37,042 bases of DNA from a virus. The DNA lies in IMG/VR virus record IMGVR_UViG_3300024272_002272; one strand, written 5' to 3'. The translations under genes were made by a program, and so were the position numbers. A model generated the notes under the pieces. That model ran no database searches, was not told where the DNA came from, and saw only the letters and a program-made list of their open reading frames with translations. This document shows positions 2,574 through 37,042 of the stretch, piece by piece. Numbering within the stretch: the stretch's first letter is position 1; the number at the start of each line of letters is the position of its first letter.

Positions 2574-3026
2574 TTACTTAATATTTACATCAATGTTATT
2601 CATAATATCAAAAGTATCTTCATTGCCACTATTTGAAGCCTTAACATTGATTTCATCAAAGTAAGTTATATAAATTAAAAAATCTAACATATCACCAACT
2701 TCATCAGTTAAGAAATTAGGTTCAACGTTAGATATATTTAAAAACCTATCTTTTACTTTTAAATTTCTAGCAAATAAGCAATCTAGCCTATCTGCCATGT
2801 CATAATTATCTAATTTGCTACTACCAAAATATTTTACTGATAACATTAATTGCTTTTGGTTAGTCTTTAAAGTAGAAGCTTTGCTTGTAACTGGTACCAA
2901 GGTTACATAAAAACATTCGTTCTCAAAAGTCCCCTCTTGATTTTCAACTATAACATCACAATTAAAGTTATCAGATAAAATTTTAGTAGTAGAAAATAAA
3001 ATATCTTTGTAAGTTATCATAATCAT
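2574..3026 (-). CDS. Tail completion/terminator-like protein (call based on position)
   Basis: 150-aa ORF between the head-tail joining genes and the sheath. No motif recognised. Confidence 0.4.
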   Translation of the reverse strand: MIMITYKDILFSTTKILSDNFNCDVIVENQEGTFENECFYVTLVPVTSKASTLKTNQKQLMLSVKYFGSSKLDNYDMADRLDCLFARNLKVKDRFLNISNVEPNFLTDEVGDMLDFLIYITYFDEINVKASNSGNEDTFDIMNNIDVNIK

Positions 3027-3037
3027 TAACCTACTTT

Positions 3038-3400
3038 CTAATCATTAAATAAATTCTCTATCATCATAGAAAATTCACTTGTTAGAGTTTCTTCTATTTC
3101 TTTTACTGATTTAGTAAGCATATATCGACCGTCAACAAAAGATTTTCCACCTCTAGTTCTATGACCATATTCAATGTACGGTGCGTAGTGAACATTGTTA
3201 TATATAATCCTAGCTAAATCTCCGTCTTTTTTAACTCTCCAACTTCTTCTAAGCACTCCACTATCTACTGGAGTTTTTAATTTAACTTTTGCAATAAGCT
3301 TTTGAGAAATTTTGTTTAAAGATTTACTAGCTTCTTCATCAAAATTATTACTAGCATTATTCAAAGTTCTAATAAATCTATTTAAGCCTTGAATATTCAT
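3038..3400 (-). CDS. HK97 gp10-like head-tail joining protein
   Basis: The motif KTPVDSGVLRRSW...YAPYIEYGHRT resembles the HK97-gp10 family. Synteny agrees. Confidence 0.65.
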   Translation of the reverse strand: MNIQGLNRFIRTLNNASNNFDEEASKSLNKISQKLIAKVKLKTPVDSGVLRRSWRVKKDGDLARIIYNNVHYAPYIEYGHRTRGGKSFVDGRYMLTKSVKEIEETLTSEFSMMIENLFND

Positions 3401-3756
3401 TATGCCCTCTCTTTATAGCTTAATAAAGTTTCACTATGAGATGAATAACAAAAAGGCTTAGAAGCTAAATAGATAGATATTTTACCCATACTAGATACCT
3501 CAACTATATCACCTTCTCGTACGTCTACGTTAGGGTTTAAAAATAATAAATGAGAAAAAGCTAAAGCACCTATCCCGTCAACGTTCATGGTTTGGATATC
3601 CTTTTTAGATAAAGCACATTTAGCATCTTCTACAATTATTATTTCTTTAGTTTCAGTTACTCCAGTATTAAGGTTTTTTATCTTTTCTTTTCTCTTAATA
3701 GTACATCTATCAAAGTAAGTACTTTCTAATATTTCTATATCAGTCATTAAAAACAC
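3400..3756 (-). CDS. Head closure / head-tail adaptor protein (call based on position)
   Basis: 118-aa ORF, translationally coupled within the head-tail joining block. Confidence 0.5.
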   Translation of the reverse strand: MFLMTDIEILESTYFDRCTIKRKEKIKNLNTGVTETKEIIIVEDAKCALSKKDIQTMNVDGIGALAFSHLLFLNPNVDVREGDIVEVSSMGKISIYLASKPFCYSSHSETLLSYKERA

Positions 3757-4091
3757 CTAACTTTTCTATATGTATTTAATATTTTCTTCTCGCTATCAGT
3801 TAAACCAACACCTGTTGAAGAAGTTTGGATAGCTTCGCCGACATTATATTCGATTTTAGTATCACCACGGCTTATAGACTTAATCTCTCCTGTATTTTGA
3901 GTGCCACCAGTTACAGTAGGTTTCATAATAGATACAACTTTATCTTCTATGAAACTTTCTAATCCTTTTGATAGCTCATTTACATTGCAATAGTCTACAA
4001 CCATAGTTTCAACCTTAGCTAAATATAATAAAATCATATTGTCATGCTTTTCATCAGTAATATTTAATAAAAGTTTTATATTTTCTAACAT
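3747..4091 (-). CDS. gp6-like head-tail connector protein (call based on position)
   Basis: 114-aa ORF immediately after the major capsid gene. Confidence 0.5.
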   Translation of the reverse strand: MLENIKLLLNITDEKHDNMILLYLAKVETMVVDYCNVNELSKGLESFIEDKVVSIMKPTVTGGTQNTGEIKSISRGDTKIEYNVGEAIQTSSTGVGLTDSEKKILNTYRKVRCF

Positions 4092-4152
4092 ACAATCACC
4101 TCACCTTTTTAAAAAAGGCAAGGGATTTATTCCCCTACCTTAGTAGTTTTAA

Positions 4153-4977
4153 TTAAGCTTTTCTAGATCTTCCAGCACTAGCTATTTTTATAGCTTTAGT
4201 AACATCTGCTAAATGAACTGTATAGTGCTTATCAACTGTTAATTCAGTAGCTCTTATATTGTGTATTCTTTCAGTTTCTAAAGAAGTATCTTTCTTTAAG
4301 TATATAGCTATAGCTCCTGGCTTAACTATGTAGTTAGTGTTAGTTACTCTGTTAGATATAACAACGTCACATCCATGTATTTGACCAACAGAACCTTCAA
4401 CTAAAGCTTCTCTTCCTAATTCTTGAACAGATAACCATGTTGGGTCTTGCTTTAATGTGTGAAGTTGAGCAGGAGAAACTAATAATACCTTTTGTCCTTC
4501 TAAGTCTTCACCAAATTTTACAAGCGCTTCAGATACTACTTCAGCAGATAAAGCTTTATTTATAGTCATTTCTTCTCCTATACCTTCTAAACAAGCCATA
4601 ACATCAGTGTCAACTTTTGCAGCTATAGCTTTTGCTAATTGTTTAGATGCTTGACCTAATGGATCTCCGTATCCTGATAATATAGCTTCATCAGTTATTC
4701 TAACACCTTTACCAGCTTTTTTAACTGTTACATTTTCCATTTCAGTAGCTAGTGCTTCAACTGGTATAGCTTCACCTTCTGCAACATCTGCTGCTTCACC
4801 TATCATTTTGTAAGCAGGTAAAGATATAGTGTTCCCTGGTCTACCAACTAATGTATTGTCTACTGTTGCAAGTGGAGCAAATTTTATAGCGAATTCTAAT
4901 TCTCCGTCTACCATAGAAGCTAATACTTCTGGGTTTATCATTTTATCTAATTTAGTCATAGTCATATTAAATACCAT
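4153..4977 (-). CDS. Major capsid protein (HK97-fold type)
   Basis: 274-aa ORF after the scaffold gene. The real start may be the ATG at 4965 (MTMTKL), which is better spaced from the AAGGA RBS. Confidence 0.8.
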   Translation of the reverse strand: MVFNMTMTKLDKMINPEVLASMVDGELEFAIKFAPLATVDNTLVGRPGNTISLPAYKMIGEAADVAEGEAIPVEALATEMENVTVKKAGKGVRITDEAILSGYGDPLGQASKQLAKAIAAKVDTDVMACLEGIGEEMTINKALSAEVVSEALVKFGEDLEGQKVLLVSPAQLHTLKQDPTWLSVQELGREALVEGSVGQIHGCDVVISNRVTNTNYIVKPGAIAIYLKKDTSLETERIHNIRATELTVDKHYTVHLADVTKAIKIASAGRSRKA

Positions 4978-5666: not shown

Positions 5667-5699
5667 CAAAAAAGACTATATATTATATATATTTATTCT

Positions 5700-5822
5700 T
5701 TATTCTTTGATAGTGTTGCCCTTTAATTGCCCTATTGTTGCCCTTAAAGTAGCTCAAAGCATTGAAAACACTATGTTTTAATTGCCCTATTGTTGCCCTT
5801 TAATTGCCCTTTTGTTGCCCTA
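5700..5822. repeat. Phased iteron array (7 x TTGCCCT at an 11-bp register), a diverged duplicate of the array inside the initiator gene
   Basis: TTGCCCT starts at 5716, 5727, 5738, 5782, 5793, 5804 and 5815, all congruent modulo 11. Positions 5700-5721 are identical to 18787-18808. Confidence 0.8.
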
Positions 5823-5966
5823 TTATTTAATTTTATAAAATTTAGCCCATTCTTTGTAAGTCATAGATGAAGGAATTTCTATACTTTTTCCCTTTTCATC
5901 TCTAGCAAATCTAGTAGACATATTATCTTCTACATAAGGAATAGTTGTTGTTCTACAGTAAGGGTG
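5823..5966 (-). other. In-frame continuation of the head morphogenesis ORF beyond its TGA (47 codons plus TAA)
   Basis: Hand translation after the TGA at 5967-5969: HPYCRTTTIPYVEDNMSTRFARDEKGKSIEIPSSMTYKEWAKFYKIK*. With the upstream PPFH this completes the PP-H-P-CR motif of the Mu F/SPP1 gp7 family. Confidence 0.55.
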
Positions 5967-6860
5967 TCAATGAAAAGGAGGCATATTTACACCAATAACT
6001 GCATCCTTAACATTAAACACCTCCCCGTCTAAATCTTGACACATTTTAGAAGTTCTTTTATCTAAAGTAGCAAGAATTTCATATTTATCAACATCACATT
6101 CTACATAAGCCTTTTGAGAAGAAGTTTCCATAAAATATGAATGCTCTGTATGTATAAGCCTTAAACAGTTTTTATAATCTGCATCTAGCTTTTTACTTAA
6201 AGCTCTTGAAGTTTCTTTAACTCCTTTACCTTGTATAATCATTTGGGTTAATTCCTGGACCATAGCATTTTTAAATTTAGTTCTATTAATCCATAAATTT
6301 TGACTATAGCTTCTACCACTCCAAGGAAAGGCCAAAATTTCTTTTATCATGTCATTATCTATATATGAAAAAGCAGCTCCAACACCTATTGATTTGTGTA
6401 TATCGAATATAGTTTGGTAGTAATTATCTTTTATAGTGCTACTGTAAGTCATTGTAAGCCTTTTATTTGTGCTTTCATATACTTCATTAATGTATTTACC
6501 ACATTGATAAAACATTTCTTCTAAACGGGAAATTCTACTTTTCATAGCTAAAGTGTTTAACTCAAGTAAAAGCTCTTCATTTCCTGTTTCTTCTATAAGT
6601 TTCATATAGGACTTTAAATCCCTTTTAAATTCTCTAAATTCACTACTATTCAAATATTTTTTTGCATCAGAATAAGATAGGTTGTTATCCTTAGCATATT
6701 TATAAAATAAATTGCTAATTTCTTTACCTATCTCATTCATAGCTTTTTTATATTCATCAACTAATTCTTTTTCTATTTTTTTTAAATCTTTTAAGCCTTT
6801 TTTAAGTTTATAAGCTTCTCTTTTTTCCCAGTATTCTTTACTAGACAAATTATTCTTCAT
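5967..6860 (-). CDS. Head morphogenesis / minor head protein (SPP1 gp7 / Mu F family), ending at an in-frame TGA
   Basis: 297-aa ORF downstream of the portal and methylase genes. It ends ...VNMPPFH* in the middle of the family motif. Confidence 0.75.
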   Translation of the reverse strand: MKNNLSSKEYWEKREAYKLKKGLKDLKKIEKELVDEYKKAMNEIGKEISNLFYKYAKDNNLSYSDAKKYLNSSEFREFKRDLKSYMKLIEETGNEELLLELNTLAMKSRISRLEEMFYQCGKYINEVYESTNKRLTMTYSSTIKDNYYQTIFDIHKSIGVGAAFSYIDNDMIKEILAFPWSGRSYSQNLWINRTKFKNAMVQELTQMIIQGKGVKETSRALSKKLDADYKNCLRLIHTEHSYFMETSSQKAYVECDVDKYEILATLDKRTSKMCQDLDGEVFNVKDAVIGVNMPPFH

Positions 6861-7890
6861 TTATAGCACCTTCTTTATTTTGTGCATTAAAAAAAGCTTC
6901 CTCAATTCTTTTAGAAGCTATATCAAAATAATTATTATCAAGTTCTATGCCTATAAATTTTCTATTGGTATTCATACAAGCTACACCAGTTGAACCACTT
7001 CCCATAAAGCAATCTAAAATTATGTCACATTTGTTAGATGATGTTTTAATTATATACTCTAATAAATCTACTGGTTTAGGAGTTATATGCCCTTGCTTTT
7101 TAGCTACTTCGTAATTCATTACAGAGTGATGTTCTTTTAAATTATTAAACGTATACCTTAAATCTTCATATTCTTGTCTTAAATCTTCATATTCTTGTCT
7201 TAAATCTTCATATGACTTATCAAAATCTAACACTTTTGATAGTACCTCGTAGTGTTTTTTTGTTATAAACTCAAATTGCTTGTAATTCTTATCTAATTTA
7301 TGTTTTAATATTGTTTTAGCACTTGCTCTATTTCTTGCTATACCGTTATCTATGTATAAATCCACAAGTCTATCATCATTATACTTGAGCCCTTTTTCCA
7401 TCAGTTTACTATAAAGATATTCTTTTATGGGCTTATAATTATCTACATCTCGTTGTACTCTATTTAATCCAGCCTCATCTTGAAAAGTATAATACAAGCA
7501 GTACTCAGCCATTTGCTTGTAATTCCTTAATCCATTTACGGCACAATGACCATCTAAATACCCTTTTAAGCTACTTCTATCAAATCTTTTATTCCATACT
7601 AGCAACTGCTTAAAAACAAAATCAGTATTATTATTTATATAATTTTGTAGTTCCACTATCTGTAAAAAGTCATTATGGAAAAAATAAAAACTACCATTAC
7701 CTTTTAATACTCTTTGGCACTCTTTAAACACTTTCCCCATGAACTCCACATACTCATTTACTGTTTTCCATTTATCCCATTTTTTATCTTTTCCTATATT
7801 GTATGGTGGGTCTATTAGTACGAGATTAACAGACTTATCTTCTATATCTTTAAATATACTTAAGCAATCCCCATTATATAATTTATACAT
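6850..7890 (-). CDS. Orphan DNA methyltransferase (N6-adenine/N4-cytosine, beta class)
   Basis: DPPY motif (VLIDPPYNIG) near the N-terminus and FMGSGSTGVA (AdoMet motif) near the C-terminus. It overlaps both neighbouring genes. Confidence 0.8.
   Translation of the reverse strand: MYKLYNGDCLSIFKDIEDKSVNLVLIDPPYNIGKDKKWDKWKTVNEYVEFMGKVFKECQRVLKGNGSFYFFHNDFLQIVELQNYINNNTDFVFKQLLVWNKRFDRSSLKGYLDGHCAVNGLRNYKQMAEYCLYYTFQDEAGLNRVQRDVDNYKPIKEYLYSKLMEKGLKYNDDRLVDLYIDNGIARNRASAKTILKHKLDKNYKQFEFITKKHYEVLSKVLDFDKSYEDLRQEYEDLRQEYEDLRYTFNNLKEHHSVMNYEVAKKQGHITPKPVDLLEYIIKTSSNKCDIILDCFMGSGSTGVACMNTNRKFIGIELDNNYFDIASKRIEEAFFNAQNKEGAINEE
7157..7213. repeat. 21-bp in-frame tandem repeat (2.7 copies) inside the methyltransferase gene
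   Basis: cttaaatcttcatattcttgt occurs at 7157-7177 and 7178-7198, with a partial copy at 7199-7213. It encodes EDLRQEYEDLRQEYEDLR. Confidence 0.9.
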
Positions 7891-16608: not shown

Positions 16609-18435
16609 TTAAATGTTCTCCCAACTATCTATATTTATCTGCTCTAAGTTTTGCATAAAATAATCAACTTCTAATTCTTCACCATTACCGTTTTTACAAT
16701 AGAATCTTCTTCTGTCTTTATCAAATAACAACTCTATGCCTATATTAACTCCCATATATCTATCTTTATTTATAGTTAATGTAGTATGTTTATCTGTTCC
16801 ATCTTCTTCATATACCCTTTGAACTATCATTACATAGTCAGCTAAGTTTGTTATATTAGCACTTCCTGATATATCTGATTTATCAAGTCCAATTTGACCA
16901 TTTTGTGCTTTTCTTGGATGTGCTACTAAGTGAACTATACAATTATATTTTTTAGCAAAACTTTTTAGTTTTTTAACTATTTCTGTTTGATTTCTTAACT
17001 CTTCTTTTTCATCATTTTCAGTAACCATTAAGTTATCTATGCAAAATACTTTTACACCGTATCTTTTGGCCATAATTTCCATTTTAGATATAATTGCATT
17101 TATACTATAATCTTCCTCTGTATATAAATAAAATTTATCTTCTAAAAAATCATCTATTCTACTAACTGCATTTGATGAAAGTTTTTTATATTTATATCCT
17201 TTTTTACTTGTAAATTCTAGCAAATCTTCTTTATTTGCAAGTGTATCTAATAGCCACCCTTTAGCATTACTTTCTGTAAGTTCTCCACTAAATAAAAACA
17301 CTTTATATCCTTGCCTTATGCTTTCACCTATGAAAAATTGATTTAGAATAGTTGATTTTCCTTCACCAGTTCGCCCAGTAATTACATTTAAGCTTCCCAA
17401 AGGTAAACCAATCATTCTATCATCTATTTTACTTATTCCTAATTGAACTGTTTCGGCTTCATATATATTAAAAGTTGATATTTGCTTTGTACTTTTAACC
17501 CCATCAACTAAAGGTGTTGAAGCTTTTTCAAGTTGTTTTAATACTGCTAGCTTACCATACTTAAATAATAATTCATTTATATCGTTGCATATATCAGAAT
17601 AAACTACTTTTACAACCTTATTAGGTAACCTATTAAATACTTCTTTTACTCCTTCTTTTCCTGCTTCGTCATTATCGTACCAAAGAATAACTTCCTCAAA
17701 TTGTTCTAACCAAGTCCAGTTGGTAGTTATCCATTCAGTAGACTTACAACCAGTAGGAACTGATACCGAATTTTTATATCCAGCTTCTATTAATGAAAGT
17801 GCATCAAATTCACCCTCGCATATTACAAGTGGCTTAGTTATATCAGCTTTATCCATAAGGTATAAAGTATTTATGTTTGTTTCAGATTCAAACCACATTT
17901 TTAATTCTTTTTTGTCTTTATTTATTTTCCTAGCAGGTCTATATTTATTTGTTATATGTTCTCCTAGCTCATTTTTATAAACAAATACTATATTGCCTTT
18001 ATTATCTTCTTTTACATCTGCATATTTTAAGGTGCTTTCAGTTATACATCTTTTATTTATATAATTAATAGTTTTAGATATATCATTTTTGTAAATTGTA
18101 GGGGCTTTTATAGGCTTTCTTTCTGTTTTAATGATTAATTTATCAGTTGATATATTAAAATCCGTTACAATTGATTTTATAGCTTCTATATATGACTTGT
18201 TATAGTATTCTTTATAGTGGTCTATTATGTTATAAGTTGCCCCACAACTAAAACATCTAAAAGTTTTTCCTTTCATATCAAAACTCATTGATGGAACTTT
18301 TTCACTATGTTTAAAACATAAACATTTATTGTTTTTATCTAATTTTAAGCACAAATCAGAAGTTATTTTATTTTTGACTTCTTCTGCTCTTATTTGAATC
18401 TGAATATCTTCCCTAATCTTTTTTATATCAATCAT
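16609..18435 (-). CDS. Bifunctional primase-helicase (zinc-finger primase, Toprim and a DnaB/RecA-type helicase)
   Basis: CHC2-like zinc finger (CLCFKH...CFSCG), Toprim motifs (VICEGEFDALSL, WYDNDEAGKEG), and Walker A GRTGEGKST. Confidence 0.85.
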   Translation of the reverse strand: MIDIKKIREDIQIQIRAEEVKNKITSDLCLKLDKNNKCLCFKHSEKVPSMSFDMKGKTFRCFSCGATYNIIDHYKEYYNKSYIEAIKSIVTDFNISTDKLIIKTERKPIKAPTIYKNDISKTINYINKRCITESTLKYADVKEDNKGNIVFVYKNELGEHITNKYRPARKINKDKKELKMWFESETNINTLYLMDKADITKPLVICEGEFDALSLIEAGYKNSVSVPTGCKSTEWITTNWTWLEQFEEVILWYDNDEAGKEGVKEVFNRLPNKVVKVVYSDICNDINELLFKYGKLAVLKQLEKASTPLVDGVKSTKQISTFNIYEAETVQLGISKIDDRMIGLPLGSLNVITGRTGEGKSTILNQFFIGESIRQGYKVFLFSGELTESNAKGWLLDTLANKEDLLEFTSKKGYKYKKLSSNAVSRIDDFLEDKFYLYTEEDYSINAIISKMEIMAKRYGVKVFCIDNLMVTENDEKEELRNQTEIVKKLKSFAKKYNCIVHLVAHPRKAQNGQIGLDKSDISGSANITNLADYVMIVQRVYEEDGTDKHTTLTINKDRYMGVNIGIELLFDKDRRRFYCKNGNGEELEVDYFMQNLEQINIDSWENI

Positions 18436-19157
18436 AACATTTCAACCTTTCTTGTATATTTGCCCCCATTATTGCATATATTAGGATTAACTAAATTATT
18501 ATTTTGAGTACCTGCTCCAACAGGTGCTTTTTTATTTGCTTCATTTAAATAATTTTCAAATTTTCCACCAAACAAAGTTGCTGGTCTTAAATACTTTTCA
18601 AAATCTGTTCCTAACCATTCTTTGCTTTTGTTATCTATAACTTTTTTAAAGTCATCTACTGTAAACCCTTCTTTTACTCTAGCATTTATTAAACTTTGAG
18701 TATTTTTAGTATTTATCCTGTAACTTGTATTGGCTTTTATGTTTAAATAATCAATAACAACACTATATATATTATTATTTTTATCTTTATTCTTTGATAG
18801 TGTTGCCCCATTGTTGCCCTTTTGTTGCCCCTTAGTATCGTCAACTTGTTGCAATTCCTCGTTTTTATTTGCCCCATTGTTGCCGAATAGCTGCCCTTTA
18901 ATTGTTATCTCTAAAGTGCTTTCTTTGCCTTTGCAACCAGCTTTTACAGGTTTAATATATCCCTCTTTTTCAAATTTCTTTAATATATTTCTAACTTTCT
19001 TAGTAGTAAGATTTAATCTTTCATCAGAATTTACAACTAATTGATTAACTGTATATCCTGCTATATTTGTGTCATAATTACAATGTTTATTTAATTGTTT
19101 CCAAACGTCATATTCTTCAAGTGTAAATGACTGCAATGTTATAAAATATTGCTCCAT
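18432..19157 (-). CDS. Replication initiator / replisome organizer (Phg_2220_C-like C-terminal domain)
   Basis: The C-terminus ...YLNIKANTSYRINTKNTQSLINARVKEGFTVDDFKKVIDNKSKEWLGTDFEKYLRPATLFGGKFENYLNE matches the conserved phage C-terminus / DnaD-like pattern. The gene contains iterons. Confidence 0.7.
   Translation of the reverse strand: MEQYFITLQSFTLEEYDVWKQLNKHCNYDTNIAGYTVNQLVVNSDERLNLTTKKVRNILKKFEKEGYIKPVKAGCKGKESTLEITIKGQLFGNNGANKNEELQQVDDTKGQQKGNNGATLSKNKDKNNNIYSVVIDYLNIKANTSYRINTKNTQSLINARVKEGFTVDDFKKVIDNKSKEWLGTDFEKYLRPATLFGGKFENYLNEANKKAPVGAGTQNNNLVNPNICNNGGKYTRKVEML
18787..18897. repeat. Phased iteron array inside the initiator gene (candidate phage origin)
   Basis: TTGCCC(C/T)-type motifs start at 18803, 18814, 18825, 18869, 18880 and 18891, all congruent modulo 11. 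They have the same 3 + gap + 3 layout as 5716-5821. Confidence 0.75.
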
Positions 19158-22162: not shown

Positions 22163-22558
22163 TCACCTTAATAAAAATTGTATAATAGCACCTACTAATG
22201 CAGTTAACATTATCCAAGTTAATATACCACCTTCGGCATCATATCTTTCAACCTGTCTTTTTAAAACTTCATATGTTTTCCATTCTTTTTCTTCCAATAC
22301 CAAAGTTAACTGATCTAATCTTTTATCTTGTTTATTATACTTTGGTTTATACTTATTAATATAATAAACTTCCATTATCTGTGCATCTGATTTAGTTGCC
22401 CATTTAATACATTCTATCTTTGCCACTTCTCGATAACATTCTTTGGGTAAATGTCCTTTGTTAAAATGTTGATTCATTCTTTGAGCCATTGTTTGCCCTG
22501 TATAACCAACATAAATCGTATTATCATATTTATCTTTAAATCTATAGGTATAAGCCAT
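22163..22558 (-). CDS. GIY-YIG nuclease-domain protein with a C-terminal transmembrane helix
   Basis: IYVGYTGQ...R...H......EVYYINKYKPKYN. The tail ILTWIMLTALVGAIIQFLL is hydrophobic. The gene ends with a TGA stop. Confidence 0.6.
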   Translation of the reverse strand: MAYTYRFKDKYDNTIYVGYTGQTMAQRMNQHFNKGHLPKECYREVAKIECIKWATKSDAQIMEVYYINKYKPKYNKQDKRLDQLTLVLEEKEWKTYEVLKRQVERYDAEGGILTWIMLTALVGAIIQFLLR

Positions 22559-22570
22559 TTAAACCACCTT

Positions 22571-23506
22571 CTATTGTTTTATATTATTCTTTAAAAGCTT
22601 ATCTATTTCATCTTCCTCTAAATACATTATTTGAGTTTCAATAATTCCGTTCTTATTTTTAACTTTACATCTACCATCTATTTTTATATCTTGTAAGTTT
22701 TGATTTTTGCCTATCAAGGTATTACTATCAGTTTCATCAAATGTTTTTAATCCTATAACTTGAGGGCAATTCATTTTACATTTACCAATTGTTTCTTTTG
22801 TTGCATCTTGCCCACCTAATATAAAATAAATGCCATATTTCCTGCATTTGCCCATTATTCTATGAAGTTCGCTTTTGCATATGCTATCAGTTGCAAACTG
22901 AACTAATTCATCAACTATAACAACTATATAACTCATTTTTTTATCATGCTTTTTATTATAATTTATTGCATTTCTACAATTAGTTTCATCAAATATTTCT
23001 GCTCTTTCTTTCATCTTATCTTCTAGTATTCTCACTATGTCTAAAAAGCCTTCTTTGTCTGTTGCCATTCTTTTAAAATGCTTATATCTTCTAAAATAAT
23101 ATATATCACTTTCAGTATAATCACACCCAAGCATAAAAACTTCATTCTCTGTATAGGTAAGCATTATATTAGTTATAATTACGTTTAATAAATTAGACTT
23201 TCCTGCTCCTGTCATTCCTCCGATTAATATATGCCCATCTAAAATATTTAAAACAACTTCATTGCCTTCTAAATCATATCCTATACATACTTTAATTCCT
23301 TCTTTTTCACCTTCTACAAAGCTATATTTTATAAAATCTTCATTGCTTTCTTTTTCATTTAATTCGGTTGGTATATATTCATATTTAATTATATTGTCTA
23401 CATCAATTTCTTTTTCTTTGTCTTTTGCAGATGAAATAATATTTAAACTGTAACCTATTGCCCCACTCATAACTCCAATTAAAAAGCTCTCTAAAAGCAT
23501 TGGCAC
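22571..23506 (-). CDS. FtsK/SpoIIIE-family ATPase with an N-terminal transmembrane segment
   Basis: Walker A ILIGGMTGAGKSN, Walker B YIVVIVDEL, and YGIYFILGGQ. The N-terminus LLESFLIGVMSGAIGYSL is hydrophobic. Confidence 0.7.
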   Translation of the reverse strand: MPMLLESFLIGVMSGAIGYSLNIISSAKDKEKEIDVDNIIKYEYIPTELNEKESNEDFIKYSFVEGEKEGIKVCIGYDLEGNEVVLNILDGHILIGGMTGAGKSNLLNVIITNIMLTYTENEVFMLGCDYTESDIYYFRRYKHFKRMATDKEGFLDIVRILEDKMKERAEIFDETNCRNAINYNKKHDKKMSYIVVIVDELVQFATDSICKSELHRIMGKCRKYGIYFILGGQDATKETIGKCKMNCPQVIGLKTFDETDSNTLIGKNQNLQDIKIDGRCKVKNKNGIIETQIMYLEEDEIDKLLKNNIKQ

Positions 23507-24419: not shown

Positions 24420-25385
24420 TTAATTAAATTTTAATTTATCTTCAACATATTTAACTACATCATCAGATAACAAGTCCGTCTTTTCAAATCCTACTCCACC
24501 ATTGGTTAAATCGTATTTAACTTCATTTCCACCATTAAAATTGCCTTCTATGTAATCCTTAATGGTTAATTTTAAGCCTTCCCCTACGTTTTTCAATGCT
24601 GAACTTATAATGTTTTCTGATAAATAGCTCATTGGCATATCTACACCAATTCCTTTTACATTGTCGGCTTCATTTATTGCTTCGATGATGCCCATGTTGC
24701 CACCACCTGTTGCCATGAATATTATATCTGAATTTGAATTAATCATTTGCTGGGCAACTATCTTAGCCTTAGAAGCATCAGTAAATGAGTTTATATATTG
24801 CTTTAATACTTTTACATTAGGATTAACTTCTTTTGCCCCCTCTATATAACCTTCAAAGAATGGAGTTAATGAAGGTATATCGAATCCCCCTATGCAAGAT
24901 ATAACATTAGTTTCAGTCATTTTACCTGCAATTAATCCAACTAAATATCCTGCCTCTTTCTCGTTGAATGTTATAGGTCTTACATTCTTAGGAATTTCTT
25001 TCCCAGCTTCATATGATGAATCTATCATTACAAAATCTTGATTTGGGTAAGATTCTACTGCTTCTTTTATTGCATCTGATACTTGGAAGCCTACACCAAC
25101 AATTAAATCTGTATCTCTATCTATAAAAGTTTCTATATTTGGAGTATAGTCTGCATCACTTTGACTTTCTAAATATGAAACCTCTACACCATATTCTTCT
25201 TGTGCTTTTAATGCCCCTTCCCATGCAGATTGATTAAAGCTTTCATCATTTACCCCACCGACTGAAAGGACTAATCCTACCTTATAATTTTCTTTTTCTG
25301 TACTTGCATTATCTTTTTTAGCACATCCCCATGCACCTACTGCAACAACAGTAGACAATAATAATACTTTAACTTTTTTTATCAT
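24420..25385 (-). CDS. BMP-family (PnrA/Med-like) substrate-binding lipoprotein
   Basis: Signal peptide with a lipobox-like VGAWGC. The body (VGLVLSVGGVNDESFNQSAWEGA...GVGF...) resembles basic membrane protein / nucleoside-binding ABC substrate-binding proteins. Confidence 0.7.
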   Translation of the reverse strand: MIKKVKVLLLSTVVAVGAWGCAKKDNASTEKENYKVGLVLSVGGVNDESFNQSAWEGALKAQEEYGVEVSYLESQSDADYTPNIETFIDRDTDLIVGVGFQVSDAIKEAVESYPNQDFVMIDSSYEAGKEIPKNVRPITFNEKEAGYLVGLIAGKMTETNVISCIGGFDIPSLTPFFEGYIEGAKEVNPNVKVLKQYINSFTDASKAKIVAQQMINSNSDIIFMATGGGNMGIIEAINEADNVKGIGVDMPMSYLSENIISSALKNVGEGLKLTIKDYIEGNFNGGNEVKYDLTNGGVGFEKTDLLSDDVVKYVEDKLKFN

Positions 25386-26472: not shown

Positions 26473-27408
26473 TTATGAGTTATGCCAATTCCACTTTTGT
26501 TTTATTTTAAACTCAATTTCTTCATCGGTTAACTCTTTTACACTTTTATGCTCTCCATTTATTTCAACCACACTATCTGCCATAAATATTGTGCTTTCTT
26601 TTTTATTGTTTTTACTCTTATTAACATCCCCATACTTATAAGCCATTCTTAAAGCTTTTATACCATGAGAATTATTAACTTCACATATAGTTAAAGCTTC
26701 TTTTAATTTATCTATATCAGTAAATTCTTCTTCACAATCTTTTAAATCTTCTTTTTTAATATTTACACAACTTTTATTAATAATTTTTACCACTTCACTT
26801 TTGGGAATAGTTTCCATATTTTCTTTTGATTTTTTAGTATCTTTTTTATTGTTTTGTGGTATACTGTTATTATCAAAATTATTTTTATTTTCGGCATTAG
26901 CTTCTACTTCGGCAAAAGTAGAGGCTTTTTTATTTTCATCTTCTTTTATTTCTTCAACATTCTCTACTTCCTCAACTATTTTTATGTTTGGTAAAAGCTT
27001 ATATCCTTCTAGTGCATAACCTAATTTTCCTAAATCAGTTTGAACCTTAACTAAATCAACTCTATACTGTAGGGTTTTATCCCATTTATACTTTGGATTA
27101 TTTCTTTTATTTAAATATCCTGCTTCTACTAATTGTTTAATGTATTTACCTATTGTGGCTTTACTCATTCCCACCATTAATTCATCATTTAATTCTTCTG
27201 CCGTTTTATATATCCAGCCTTTACTTTCTTCTATCGAAACTTCTATTTCCTCTTTTATGGCTCTTTCTTTTTCTTCTTGGATGTACTTATCAGTGTCTTT
27301 CATTCTTTCAGTCCAATAAATAAACTGGTTTAATATTAATGCAGGTCTGTAATCTCCTGTAAGTTCAACTAATTCCTGTTTTATAACAACTCTTTTTAGC
27401 TTATTCAT
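26473..27408 (-). CDS. Winged-helix DNA-binding protein; candidate plasmid-type replication initiator
   Basis: The N-terminus ...ALILNQFIYWTERM...GWIYKTAEELNDELMVGMSKATIGKYIKQLVEAGYL resembles the wHTH of Firmicute Rep/DnaD-N-like proteins. It lies downstream of iterons and DnaA boxes. Confidence 0.4.
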   Translation of the reverse strand: MNKLKRVVIKQELVELTGDYRPALILNQFIYWTERMKDTDKYIQEEKERAIKEEIEVSIEESKGWIYKTAEELNDELMVGMSKATIGKYIKQLVEAGYLNKRNNPKYKWDKTLQYRVDLVKVQTDLGKLGYALEGYKLLPNIKIVEEVENVEEIKEDENKKASTFAEVEANAENKNNFDNNSIPQNNKKDTKKSKENMETIPKSEVVKIINKSCVNIKKEDLKDCEEEFTDIDKLKEALTICEVNNSHGIKALRMAYKYGDVNKSKNNKKESTIFMADSVVEINGEHKSVKELTDEEIEFKIKQKWNWHNS

Positions 27409-27547
27409 GTTTATCCTCCTTTTCTTTCATATCTTTTCTTATAAGCTCCATTACATATTGTTGGAATGATTTTCTTTCTTTTAAAAGGTTTATTTTTATT
27501 TTTAAAAGCTCTTCATCTTCTATTCTAACAGTTAATGCTCTTTTCAT
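27401..27547 (-). CDS. Ribbon-helix-helix (CopG-like) protein, 48 aa
   Basis: Hand translation: MKRALTVRIEDEELLKIKINLLKERKSFQQYVMELIRKDMKEKEDKHE*. GAGGTG RBS. It overlaps the next ATG by 8 nt. Confidence 0.55.
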   Translation of the reverse strand: MKRALTVRIEDEELLKIKINLLKERKSFQQYVMELIRKDMKEKEDKHE

Positions 27548-27579
27548 TTAATCACCTCTTAATAATATTATATATTTAT

Positions 27580-27609
27580 ATTATATGCTTTATGACGTCA
27601 TTTTGGCAA
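27580..27609 (-). promoter_or_regulatory. Promoter of the RHH/Rep-like operon, with a palindromic operator in the spacer
   Basis: Minus sense: TTGCCA (27604-27609), an 18-nt spacer, then TATAAT (27580-27585). The perfect palindrome ATGACGTCAT lies at 27592-27601. Confidence 0.5.
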
Positions 27610-27634
27610 TATTTTTTATAAATATATATGAAAA

Positions 27635-27670
27635 TAATCTTTGAAGTAATCTTTGAAGTAATCTTTGGTA
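27635..27670. repeat. 12-bp tandem repeat x3 (TAATCTTTGAAG)
   Basis: 27635-27646 and 27647-27658 are identical. 27659-27670 reads TAATCTTTGGTA. Confidence 0.9.
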
Positions 27671-27674
27671 TTGC

Positions 27675-27808
27675 AGTTTAAAAAATAAATTATGAGATTT
27701 AATTTTTAAATTATGAAGTTTAAAAAATAAATTATGAGATTTAGTTTTTAAAAATCGATAAACTAAAATAAAACTATCGAAGTTTAAAATTTAAAACTCG
27801 GAGATTTC
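27675..27808. repeat. 27-bp direct repeats (AGTTTAAAAAATAAATTATGAGATTTA) at a 42-bp spacing, plus a degenerate third copy
   Basis: Exact copies lie at 27675-27701 and 27717-27743. A degenerate copy lies at 27781-27808. Confidence 0.8.
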
Positions 27809-27897
27809 AATGCTTTGATGATATTTTTAAAGAAAACCTAGAAATACCTAAAAAGGACTTCTTAGTATTTCCAGTAATTTTAGATTGAATATGAAAT

Positions 27898-27924
27898 TGT
27901 GGATATTGTGGATTATGTGAATAA
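27898..27924. promoter_or_regulatory. Three abutting DnaA-box-like 9-mers
   Basis: TGTGGATAT, TGTGGATTA and TGTGAATAA, compared with the reverse-complement consensus TGTGNAWAA. Matches are 8/9, 8/9 and 9/9. Confidence 0.55.
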
Positions 27925-28047
27925 CTAATGGAATTATTTTACAAGCTCCTAGTAGGGATAAAGAATTTATTTCCAAAGAAGATTAAAAAACTTAACATCT
28001 ACATAAAATAAATATATAATTATTTAATAAACAAAGGAGGATATAAA

Positions 28048-28513: not shown

Positions 28514-28662
28514 AAAAAGAAGCTATCAAAATAGATAGCCCTTCTTCTAGCATTGGAAGATATAAATTTATATTTAACATTTGTTATATTTATCATATAT
28601 TTATAGGAAAAATTTGTCAATATTAAAAGGATTTCTAATACATATATAGAATATATAAAATA

Positions 28663-35882: not shown

Positions 35883-37042
35883 TAATAAGCACCTCCATAT
35901 ACCATTTTATTTTGATTAATCTTTTGAACTAATTTATTAGCTATTTTAGTTATGTCTGCTTCTTCTCTTACAGTTAATCCATTTATGACTATATTTACAC
36001 CTGTATTAGTGCCTTTTTCATACCTATTTGCCTCTTGTTTGGTTAATACACGCTCTCCTTCGTGAAGCGTTCTAACTGTTCCATCTCTTGCTATTCTACC
36101 ACTACCAAAAGCATTTCTACCTTCACTCTTGCCACCAAGTACACTTTTAGTGATTCCTACAACTGCTCTAACAGGAGAAGTTATTATTGAAACAAAATTT
36201 TTCCACCAAGAAACTATGTTGTCTATTGCATTTTTACAGTCAGCTTTTAACTGATTCATACTTCTACCCCAGTTTGCTTGAACTACGGCAATAGCAGCAT
36301 TAACGGCAACTATTGCAGCTATAACTGCACCTACAGGGCTACAAATAAAAGCAAATGCAGCTGCAACAACTCCACATATAACACCTAAAGCTTTTAGTGC
36401 TAATATTATGCCTGTTACAATAGGGGCTATAGTTACTAATACTGCTCCTACTCCTGCAACAATTCCCCCAAATATTAATATTTGTTGAATTAGTTTTGGA
36501 TTTTCATTTATCCAACTTACTATTTTGTCTATAACAGGAGATATTTTATTCATTAACTGTTCTAAAGTTGGCATTAATGCTTGACCTATGGAGTTTTTAA
36601 CTAAATCAAATTTTCCTTTTAACTCATTCCACTTGTCTTTAAATTGTTGTATCTTTTGTAATTGGCTTTCACTTATATAGCTATATCCTTCAAGTTCTTT
36701 AGCTTTTTCTGCCCAATTATCTAAATGTGGTAATAATTCTTCCCCTGTAGTAGATAACAAAGCAGTCATAACGGCTTGTTGGTGAGTTTTATTTTCAAGC
36801 TTACTTGTAGCTAGCATTAACTCATTCATAAAAGTACCAGTTTCTTTTAATTTCCCATTACTATCAGTAACAGATAATCCAAGTTGTTTTACTATTTGAG
36901 TTAAATCACTTTCACTTTCTAATAATCCACCAAGTTCTTGTTCAGTTACAGCCATTCTTTCTGCCATTGCTGCAAAATCTCCGTTAGCTTGCTCCATTGA
37001 GTAGCCTGTAGATTTAAGCATTTTATCCCATTGTTGATAAGA
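35882..37042 (-). CDS. Tail tape measure protein, C-terminal segment (36916-37042 duplicates 1-127; the joined product is about 478 aa)
   Basis: ORF open to the window edge, with a hydrophobic Gly/Ala/Val/Ile-rich core and the expected position. It is in frame with 1..403 after removing the 127-nt overlap. Confidence 0.8.
   Translation of the reverse strand, partial: SYQQWDKMLKSTGYSMEQANGDFAAMAERMAVTEQELGGLLESESDLTQIVKQLGLSVTDSNGKLKETGTFMNELMLATSKLENKTHQQAVMTALLSTTGEELLPHLDNWAEKAKELEGYSYISESQLQKIQQFKDKWNELKGKFDLVKNSIGQALMPTLEQLMNKISPVIDKIVSWINENPKLIQQILIFGGIVAGVGAVLVTIAPIVTGIILALKALGVICGVVAAAFAFICSPVGAVIAAIVAVNAAIAVVQANWGRSMNQLKADCKNAIDNIVSWWKNFVSIITSPVRAVVGITKSVLGGKSEGRNAFGSGRIARDGTVRTLHEGERVLTKQEANRYEKGTNTGVNIVINGLTVREEADITKIANKLVQKINQNKMVYGGAY
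36916..37042. repeat. Terminal direct repeat, copy 2 (identical to 1-127)
   Basis: Read directly. Confidence 0.95.

Follow-up and report, generated by a model that had tools for sequence, protein, structure and literature searches.

The window analysed here is the whole 37,042-nt stretch of viral DNA recorded as IMGVR_UViG_3300024272_002272 in IMG/VR (28% G+C), and the element under study is a candidate replication cassette at positions 26473–27924, encoded, like nearly all genes of the window, on the minus strand. An exact 127-nt direct repeat is present at both termini (1–127 and 36916–37042); therefore, the window is a complete genome of ~36.9 kb that was circularly assembled. The virus is a tailed phage, with genes for TerS, TerL (Terminase_3), an SPP1-type portal, capsid, baseplate proteins, a holin-like protein, and an amidase, and its host is a low-GC gut Firmicute.

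The cassette contains two minus-strand open reading frames (ORFs), a 48-aa gene followed by a gene for a 311-aa protein, whose start it overlaps by 8 nt (Table 1). These two genes had been proposed to form an operon in a preliminary description made from the sequence alone, and both are present as given there, as is the good promoter upstream of them (TTGCCA-18-TATAAT), which agrees with the consensus at 11 of 12 positions and is conserved in position in alignment A3. The perfect palindrome that had been placed in the promoter spacer, ATGACGTCAT, was also located. A palindromic operator that overlaps the repressor's own promoter is a feature of CopG/Arc-type regulation, and ATGACGTCAT is the predicted operator here, although the palindrome alone has no statistical significance (at ≤1 mismatch, it is matched at least once in 34 of 100 shuffles).

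The identity of the small gene is less firm. The 48-aa protein had been labelled a ribbon-helix-helix (RHH) protein; this label was not confirmed, because Pfam and PDB searches gave no match and the assignment comes solely from a beta-alpha-alpha sequence pattern. The protein matches phrog_37719 (function not known) at 4.7e-6. A homologue occupies the equivalent position in the related loci L012–L018, whereas a 78-aa winged helix-turn-helix (wHTH) gene replaces it in L001, L003, and L011, and comparison of these sequences indicates that this upstream position is filled in a modular way, by an RHH-like gene in the window and L012 and by a winged-helix gene in the other three. The sequence TGACGTCA is found in the promoter spacer of L012, which has the RHH-like homologue, and is absent from the spacers of L001, L003, and L011. 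Since TGACGTCA accompanies only the RHH-like version of the gene, it fits a predicted operator of the RHH-like protein. Judged by this distribution, the promoter palindrome goes with the small RHH-like gene and not with Rep, and the 48-aa protein is a probable autorepressor of the operon.

Upstream of the promoter is a non-coding region (75% A+T; no ORF ≥40 aa on that strand) that comprises, in minus-strand order, a seven-unit array, the core sequence GCAATACC, AGATTAC repeats, and a nearly pure A/T stretch. The unit cores are CTCCGAG, CTTCGAT, TATCGAT, TCTCATA, CTTCATA, TCTCATA, and CTGCAAT, and repeated units of this type beside a rep gene are the arrangement of an iteron-type theta replicon. 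Identity within the array is 0.53 at lag 21 and 0.62 at lag 42, compared to a mean of 0.446 ± 0.021 for the best lag in shuffled sequences (0/2000 dinucleotide shuffles reach the observed value). The window shares its 3+3+1 unit pattern with L001, L003, L011, and L012. An alignment of the intergenic region from five relatives, with a mean column identity of only ~72%, displays one shared order: three TCGA units, three TCAT-type units, GCAATAC, the 12-nt repeats, a T-rich stretch, and the promoter. Two sets of repeats had been listed for this region in the preliminary description. Both are present as placed, the first as a perfect 12-nt repeat in 2.8 copies (27635–27667) and the second, given as 27-bp repeats 42 bp apart, as a 39-nt direct repeat with 95% identity and 42-nt spacing (27672–27752; a third, partial copy at 27775–27795), but they are parts of one family-conserved origin and not separate features.

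Three abutting, co-oriented DnaA-box-like 9-mers (TTATTCACA, TAATCCACA, and ATATCCACA) are found further upstream, at the place noted previously. Because such 9-mers are no more frequent across the window than predicted by chance (12 observed, 12.7 expected), only their abutting arrangement is informative. The triplet is conserved in L001, L011, and L007, two of the boxes are retained in L003, and a perfect TTATCCACA is present in both L001 and L003. In the two loci compared for spacing, the triplet and the core motif are almost equally far apart (-251 in the window and -252 in L001). L012-type relatives lack the triplet, and the DnaA boxes are an addition specific to a subclade and not a feature of the family. 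Of the suggested textbook layout of a theta plasmid origin, DnaA-box-like sequences, iterons, and an A/T stretch are present, but the boxes are not family-wide and are close to a divergent promoter, and the two sets of repeats belong to a single origin.

Table 1 Positions of the cassette, the phage-type replication system, and flanking plus-strand features in the 37,042-nt window
Feature	Position	Strand or location	Basis or remark
Initiator gene (predicted), 311 aa	26473–27408	-	ORF call
Small 48-aa gene, RHH-like by pattern	27401–27547	-	ORF call
Operon promoter, TTGCCA-18-TATAAT	27580–27609	-	11/12 consensus positions; best sigma-70-like promoter in the region
Perfect palindrome ATGACGTCAT, candidate operator	27592–27601	promoter spacer	sole copy in window
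Nearly pure A/T stretch, candidate DNA-unwinding element	27610–27633	between origin core and promoter	read from sequence
Predicted origin core GCAATACC, then AGATTAC, AGATTAC, AGATTAT at 12-nt spacing	27634–27674	-	
Seven iteron-like units, 21–22-nt period	27660–27808	-	periodicity test; conserved in relatives
Three abutting co-oriented DnaA-box-like 9-mers	27898–27924	-	each one mismatch to TTATCCACA
Divergent promoter of two small plus-strand genes, TTAACA-17-TATAAT	27992–28020	+	11/12 consensus positions
DUF5348 protein, 75 aa	28048–28275	+	Pfam DUF5348, 2e-7
Cys-rich zinc-ribbon-like protein, 54 aa	28349–28513	+	zinc-ribbon match weak
Bidirectional terminator, ends both plus-strand genes	28520–28541		
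Replisome organizer, HTH + Phg_2220_C	18432–19157	-	Pfam, TIGR02220
Primase-helicase	16609–18435	-	Pfam; 8 kb from cassette, beside organizer
Three GGGCAACA iterons, then A/T-rich stretch, in organizer linker-coding region	18770–18885	-	
Second phage-type origin copy, four exact GGGCAACA repeats (5714–5820)	5680–5830	-	non-coding gap, late region

The predicted initiator family and its origin motif

The AlphaFold2 (AF2) model of the 311-aa protein (mean predicted local distance difference test score, pLDDT, 62) contains the winged helix that had been claimed for it (aa 10–128), a disordered acidic linker (aa 140–202), and a small helical C-domain. Based on this, the protein was divided into an N-terminal winged-helix domain (aa 1–138), the linker, and a C-domain (aa 205–311, with helices in aa 205–260). 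Its PHROG matches are phrog_22444 (6e-27) and, more weakly, the DnaD-like loader phrog_6493 (2e-9) and the replication-initiation phrogs 428, 270, and 9773. Searches of Pfam and NCBIfam gave only matches below threshold (helix-turn-helix [HTH] and RepC/HTH, respectively), and PDB sequence searches, whether made with the protein alone or with a profile of the family, returned nothing meaningful. There was no sequence match to RepA_N (PF06970) in the 311-aa protein (E ≤ 0.1) or in 53 family members (E ≤ 0.001), and none of these proteins matched Rep_3.

The N-domain (138 aa) is highly conserved and defines a family with 1,608 representatives at 50% identity; among the best 150 matches listed, it is positioned at the N-terminus of proteins of ~135–580 aa. 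From plasmids, genomes, and viral contigs, we sampled 53 diverse members. By their C-terminal regions, 42 of the 53 fall into one BLAST linkage cluster, which includes the Phg_2220_C domain of the phage's own replisome organizer, and Pfam identified DnaB_2 in nine members (best 2.7e-18) and Phg_2220_C in four (best 3.3e-29). At 18 genomic loci, a DnaC/IstB-like AAA+ gene directly follows the family gene, and a replication-relaxation gene is nearby at 12 loci, usually divergent and just upstream. These C-domain fusions and the adjacency of loader genes (i.e., architecture and association) suggest that the N-domain is the origin-binding module of DnaD-like initiators. By this comparison, the N-terminal winged helix would be the DNA-binding domain of a large DnaD-like initiator family of Bacillota mobile elements, and the membership of the 311-aa protein in this replication-initiator family is supported. 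A comparison of the protein with Rep, RepA_N, and DnaD profiles had been suggested as a check: the family of its N-domain is of the initiator type, but RepA_N gave no match and its own C-domain is not demonstrably DnaD-like. Homologues were also found in large chromosomal contigs and in one complete chromosome, showing that the family belongs to mobile elements in general and not to plasmids alone.

A recurrent module of Bacillaceae (L100, L111, L130, L131, L134, L136, and L150) consists of a divergent Replic_Relax gene, an initiator-family gene, and a DnaC/IstB-like AAA+ loader gene; L100 is the complete Rummeliibacillus chromosome that carries it. Its probable role is in the replication of integrated or plasmid-like elements.

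To characterise the origins of the family, periodic repeats were compared across its genes. In the plasmid homologues of Paenibacillus pPlas3, Alicyclobacillus pAACI01, and Bacillus toyonensis pDC11_3, repeats with a 21-nt period are located in the linker-coding part of the gene. Family-wide, all 14 strong intragenic periodic repeats (score ≥ 0.70) have a lag of 21 or 42, and all are positioned at about nt 420–750 of the gene. The in-gene iterons are followed by a nearly invariant GCAATACCAGAGATTAC, by further AGATTAC units, and, as in the window, by A/T-rich or A-rich sequence after the core motif. In 40 of 55 family entries, the locus contains a single copy of the 16-nt pattern CARTACCRRAGAYTA, invariably on the gene strand (36 in the gene linker, 4 upstream, and 0 elsewhere in 837 kb). 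Hence, the core motif is found only with the family gene, and the putative cognate initiator is encoded beside the repeats and co-inherited with them. Where it is in the gene, CARTACCRRAGAYTA encodes AIPEIT with frozen synonymous sites (ATA 31/31, CCA 32/32, GAG 31/31, ATT 29/29, compared to background usages of 35, 37, 31, and 47% for these codons), which shows that the constraint acts on the DNA.

The upstream position is seen in four loci of one clade, namely the window, its duplicate locus L007, L001, and L093, and L012 has a one-base variant. Genes of the window clade lack internal repeats (for the 311-aa gene, the best internal score is 0.53, at lag 18, and no periodic repeat was found), and the array and motif are instead located 265–406 nt before the gene in non-coding DNA. 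Because the iterons and motif that make up the in-gene origins of the family are situated in non-coding DNA upstream of the gene in this case, 27634–27808 is identified by sequence as the predicted cognate origin of the 311-aa protein, an assignment for which this shared architecture is the strongest argument. As reconstructed from these alignments, the putative family origin consists of 21-nt iterons, then GCAATACC-(AGATTAC-N5)x2-3, then A/T-rich DNA, and is normally contained in the linker-coding part of the gene; in the window clade it appears to have moved out of the gene. A family with this predicted diagnostic cis-element has so far gone unrecognised, and the core DNA motif string has no occurrence in the open full-text literature. 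With the 2-kb region as query, a nucleotide search gave no match in phages and a single weak match to a Bacillus plasmid.

A partition-centromere reading of the 12-nt repeats was rejected, because the element is embedded in initiator genes across the family and because L012-type relatives have a separate ParM/adaptor pair. We also dropped the idea that the family corresponds to the DnaA-dependent B. subtilis replicon of pBS72, since no B. subtilis plasmid of the size expected for pBS72 is among the matches listed; pBS72 is named several times in a paper on the pLS20 family of conjugative plasmids. A perfectly regular linker repeat was observed in the 142-kb B. subtilis plasmid pNIB353_1 (L006, 5980–7512), in which perfect 42-nt units (lag-42 identity 1.00) translate to repeated peptides of the LQNEASNLRNEDSK type. 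Family members of this kind are carried by 136–156-kb B. subtilis plasmids from fermented soybean foods, and MOB-suite gives no replicon type for pNIB353_1 (one record inspected).

A phage-type replication system and relatives on plasmids

A second replication system is encoded 8 kb from the cassette, which agrees with the earlier proposal of two systems in one genome. It consists of a replisome organizer and a primase-helicase with iterons of a different kind, together with ERF, an ERCC4 nuclease, and SSB. All seven exact copies of GGGCAACA in the window are confined to two sites, three in the linker-coding region of the organizer gene and four in a non-coding gap of the late region, and the two sites have a block of ~45 nt in common. 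The phage-type system therefore has its own origins, which are unrelated to the repeats at 27.6–27.9 kb, and BLASTP detected no similarity between the organizer and the 311-aa protein.

Using tblastn with the N-domain, we found homologues in 33 PLSDB plasmids with up to 61% identity (Bacillus, Alicyclobacillus, Vagococcus, Paenibacillus, and others) and in none of 50,697 deposited phage genomes (INPHARED). At least two of the 33 plasmids are isolate phage-plasmids. B. toyonensis pDC11_3 (40.9 kb) and Priestia pG5MAi6_3 (41.6 kb) are circular isolate plasmids that constitute complete siphoviruses, and both encode the homologue between the lysis and early genes with an AimR gene alongside. The former also has ParA and, on the other strand, a separate P4-type primase module; the latter has an FtsK-like gene, a replication-relaxation gene, and a recombinase. 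The 36-kb Paenibacillus plasmid pPlas3 carries transfer genes of the type IV secretion type; its homologue is located near ParM, and no other plausible Rep is among the annotations listed.

The L012–L018 loci are the closest relatives of the cassette: their N-domains are 79% identical to that of the window protein, and they also have a homologous RHH-like gene and the same palindrome in the promoter. They are ordered as an XRE gene, the origin, the RHH-like gene, the initiator gene, an actin-like ParM (ALP_N, 4e-20), and an 86-aa RHH-like adaptor, and tail, holin, and amidase genes related to those of the window converge on this cassette from the other side. Such a layout indicates a phage-plasmid maintenance module. 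Like phage-plasmids, the window itself combines a full set of virion, packaging, and lysis genes with a plasmid-type replication gene, the predicted initiator (homologues in 33 plasmids, compared to 0 phages). Among the window ORFs scanned, there is no integrase, ParA, ParM, TubZ, or resolvase. The exact 311-aa protein occurs on contigs of 20–50 kb in 22 collection blocks and on none >50 kb.

The L012-type, phage-plasmid-like elements also encode, on the strand opposite to the rep-par cassette, a REP_ORF2-G2P-type (rolling-circle-like) replication protein and a Bro-N/ORF6C antirepressor (2798–3685 and 1865–2572 in L012), and two replication systems would be present there as well. Downstream of the initiator cassette, the window has an FtsK/SpoIIIE-like ATPase gene (~311–323 aa) followed by a GIY-YIG nuclease gene (22163–23506). 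This pair is also found in L001, L003, L154, L156, and L161, and its position is kept, irrespective of tail type, in the relatives that were studied closely; pG5MAi6_3 pairs its FtsK-like gene with the replication-relaxation gene. The ATPase may serve in DNA segregation or transfer.

Compared to known systems, the closest analogue in architecture is the RepA_N family, although sequence membership in it was not found. RepA_N proteins (pSK41, pAD1, pLS32) are tripartite and of nearly the same size, with an N-domain of ~120–140 aa, and the modelled layout of the window protein agrees with this. In pSK41 Rep, the N-terminal winged helix binds iterons central in the rep gene, the linker is dispensable, and the helical C-domain is genus- or clade-specific, and pPR9 illustrates a modular swap of N-domains between plasmid and phage initiators (PMC5703833). 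Central in-gene iterons as in pSK41 hold for most members of our family but not for the window gene, whose clade has its origin upstream. Other differences are that Foldseek retrieves no RepA structures for the 311-aa protein and that the window has a DnaA-box triplet and a separate small regulator gene, with no antisense RNA evident. The replisome organizers lambda O and SPP1 G38P resemble the family in having iterons and an A/T-rich stretch in the linker-coding part of the gene and, as in many family members, a Phg_2220_C or DnaB_2 C-domain with a helicase loader next door. The window protein differs from them in lacking both this C-domain and an adjacent loader or helicase (the next genes are an HTH regulator and a lipoprotein gene) and in having its origin outside the gene. 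In the phage, the gene that does correspond to such an organizer is the one at 18432–19157, which has different iterons, and its duplicated GGGCAACA origin, with one copy in the organizer gene, has the same arrangement as in lambda O and SPP1 oriL-oriR.

Phage P1 carries the oriR/RepA maintenance replicon alongside the lytic oriL/RepL. The window is similar in that a maintenance-type replicon would be present beside a separate lytic system in one phage genome, and P1 and the iteron plasmids of Gram-negative bacteria have the same layout of DnaA boxes, direct repeats, an A/T stretch, and an autoregulated rep operon. They differ from the window in that its initiator is unrelated (no Rep_3 match), its autoregulation is probably exerted by a separate small protein, and no partition locus was found. 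To our knowledge, DnaA dependence is uncommon among described Firmicutes plasmids. One such plasmid, pBS72, is reported as probably DnaA-dependent (PMC5615212).

In pMV158, the RHH repressor CopG is co-transcribed with Rep and represses the copG-repB promoter. Shared with the window are a regulator gene of ~45–50 aa that overlaps or abuts rep on its upstream side and a palindrome in the operon promoter, whereas pMV158 is a rolling-circle plasmid with an unrelated Rep and the RHH fold of the 48-aa protein is not confirmed. The plasmid prophages of Bacillus cereus sensu lato and other Bacillaceae are tailed-phage genomes that are kept as circular plasmids (PMC8026635). The two described above, pDC11_3 and pG5MAi6_3, have the N-domain homologue in common with the window, but Bacillaceae plasmid prophages also encode ParA or ParM with an RHH adaptor, Xer-type or serine recombinases, Replic_Relax, and AimR or CI-type control, none of which was found in the window.

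Interpretation and rival explanations

Based on these comparisons, 26473–27924 likely comprises a functional origin and its cognate initiator, in addition to the second replication system of the phage. In the mechanism that we propose, the initiator would bind the iteron array and the core, and its binding would open the adjacent A/T stretch. Host DnaA would bind at the box triplet, and the complex would recruit either the helicase-loading pathway of the host (DnaD/DnaB/DnaI-DnaC) or the phage helicase, followed by theta replication of the circularised genome. The 48-aa RHH-like protein may bind ATGACGTCAT in the promoter spacer and limit the supply of initiator in a CopG-like manner. The cassette would then be the maintenance replicon of a non-integrating plasmid prophage, whereas the organizer and primase-helicase, the two GGGCAACA origins, ERF, the ERCC4 nuclease, and SSB would drive lytic replication. 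This full reading, with the maintenance replicon included, is tentative, and we place its chances a little short of even. Slightly more speculative is its broadest form, in which the cassette could represent an undescribed, widespread family of Bacillota mobile-element replicons, defined by the 138-aa domain and the GCAATACCAGAGATTAC/AGATTAC element. The clade of the window would have relocated the origin, replaced the DnaD-like domain, and added a phased DnaA-box triplet, and the phage would be kept as a host-DnaA-assisted multicopy plasmid beside its lytic system.

Several results weigh against the plasmid interpretation or parts of it. The C-domain of the window protein is not comparable to the DnaD-like C-domains of the family (hhalign probability 0.6%), has no Pfam match, and gives only E > 1 when its AF2 model is used in Foldseek; a homologue search recovered only 12 fragments, all from the window clade, to which the domain is therefore restricted. 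With the full-length AF2 model, Foldseek retrieved only generic ArsR/MarR winged helices (E ≥ 0.03). No replication assay of any family member was found in the literature. A partition gene, a resolvase, and a recognisable CI-type repressor were not found among the ORFs scanned, and the window cassette is co-oriented with the early lytic genes and heads them, unlike those of the phage-plasmid relatives. TerS/TerL (Terminase_3), the SPP1-type portal, and the 127-nt terminal repeat fit headful (pac-type) packaging, which alone would yield a circular assembly, so that circularity says nothing on a plasmid state. Placement of the origin by GC or cumulative skew was uninformative, because the skew runs monotonically and mainly follows gene orientation. 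Across the family, the density of DnaA boxes is 0.40 per kb close to the motif and 0.38 elsewhere, and they were therefore rejected as a general feature of its origins; the triplet is also positioned ~70 nt upstream of the divergent promoter of the two plus-strand genes, where DnaA could have a transcriptional role.

Some of these features would be accounted for if the virus were a virulent SPP1-like phage with no plasmid state, in which the cassette fires the first host-dependent theta rounds after injection and the organizer and ERF then make concatemers. Near-unidirectional transcription, the SPP1-type portal, the pac-type terminase, and the duplicated phage origins are all as expected for such a phage; the cassette is first in the early operon and co-oriented with the early genes, partition, resolvase, and repressor genes were not found, and DnaA boxes fit the use of host machinery before phage proteins accumulate. 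This explanation is nevertheless somewhat less likely than the maintenance reading, because the initiator is present in no deposited (mostly cultured) phage, its isolate homologues are in plasmid or phage-plasmid maintenance modules, and the nearest relatives of the cassette are coupled to ParM/ParR and an XRE gene. The lipoprotein moron, the TnpB insertion, and the methylase also suggest long residence in cells. A different use of the same genes is conceivable, in which both proteins now serve the early operon purely as transcription factors, the repeats act as operators or in an enhancer-like manner, and the ancestral origin function was lost with the DnaD-like domain, which is no longer in the protein. 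The dissimilar C-domain, the truncation of clade relatives to 224–250 aa, the ArsR/MarR-type fold matches, and the location of the repeats directly upstream of the promoter would be explained in this way. Operators, however, need less than the iteron period, core motif, and A/T stretch that are kept in non-coding DNA across diverged lineages; moreover, the same DNA element is constrained inside coding regions elsewhere and the family context is replication throughout, which makes this loss of origin function improbable.

Conservation of the triplet in a subclade only, and its position outside the family origin, could also mean that the cassette acts on the host or on competitors and not on replication of the phage itself, for example by titration of host DnaA or by incompatibility exerted through the iterons on related elements, iteron arrays being classic incompatibility determinants. 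Three boxes are few for titration, the conserved initiator gene, promoter, and regulator would be left unexplained, and direct support is lacking, and we therefore consider such an action very improbable. We give the least credence to the view that the upstream repeats arose by chance in low-complexity DNA or are what is left of a decaying initiator gene, a disfavoured explanation for which it can be said that DNA of 75% A+T yields many weak repeats and that the motif is coding sequence elsewhere. The conservation of the motif and array across the family argues against both a chance repeat and a remnant: no shuffle out of 2000 reaches the observed periodicity, the unit pattern, core motif, and DnaA-box spacing are conserved at ~72% intergenic identity, and the region has no ORF ≥40 aa on that strand.

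The proposed origin and initiator have implications beyond this phage. The cassette is a candidate clonable replicon for low-GC anaerobes (Clostridium and relatives of Romboutsia), for which theta replicons for vectors are few. The initiator family (~1,600 clusters at 50% identity) is now annotated as 'hypothetical' or 'HTH domain protein', and its DNA signature locates the origin. Movement of the origin between a coding and a non-coding context helps to separate protein-level from DNA-level constraint. If the plasmid role is true, a phage with neither integrase nor partition genes persists as a multicopy plasmid rather than integrating, many integrase-less gut phages scored as virulent could be plasmid prophages, and lifestyle predictions in gut viromes would change.

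Neighbouring features of the phage genome

The only plus-strand genes of the genome (28048–28513) encode the DUF5348 and Cys-rich proteins (Table 1). Beyond their terminator, in the gap after the lysis genes, is a strong minus-strand promoter-like site (TTGACA-17-TATGAT, 28620–28592), ~50–70 nt before the hairpin at 28541–28520. It may direct the synthesis of a short non-coding RNA; no Rfam match was found, and Rfam and tRNA scans of the whole window gave zero matches. The early region contains a gene for an ABC substrate-binding lipoprotein of the PnrA/Bmp family (24420–25385, minus strand; Pfam Bmp, 4.8e-68), a host-type moron gene that is missing from relatives L001 and L003. Downstream of the phage-type replication module, a 426-aa TnpB/Cas12f-like ORF is inserted among phage genes (14426–15706, minus strand; Cas12f1-like_TNB, 6.6e-26, with a weak OrfB_IS605 match). 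The N6/N4 DNA methylase gene (6850–7890) contains a perfect 21-nt tandem repeat in 2.7 copies (7157–7213). In the relative L161 (a 52.6-kb contig), a reverse transcriptase gene (RVT_1, 3272–4285) is located beside tail-fibre genes and may belong to a diversity-generating retroelement.

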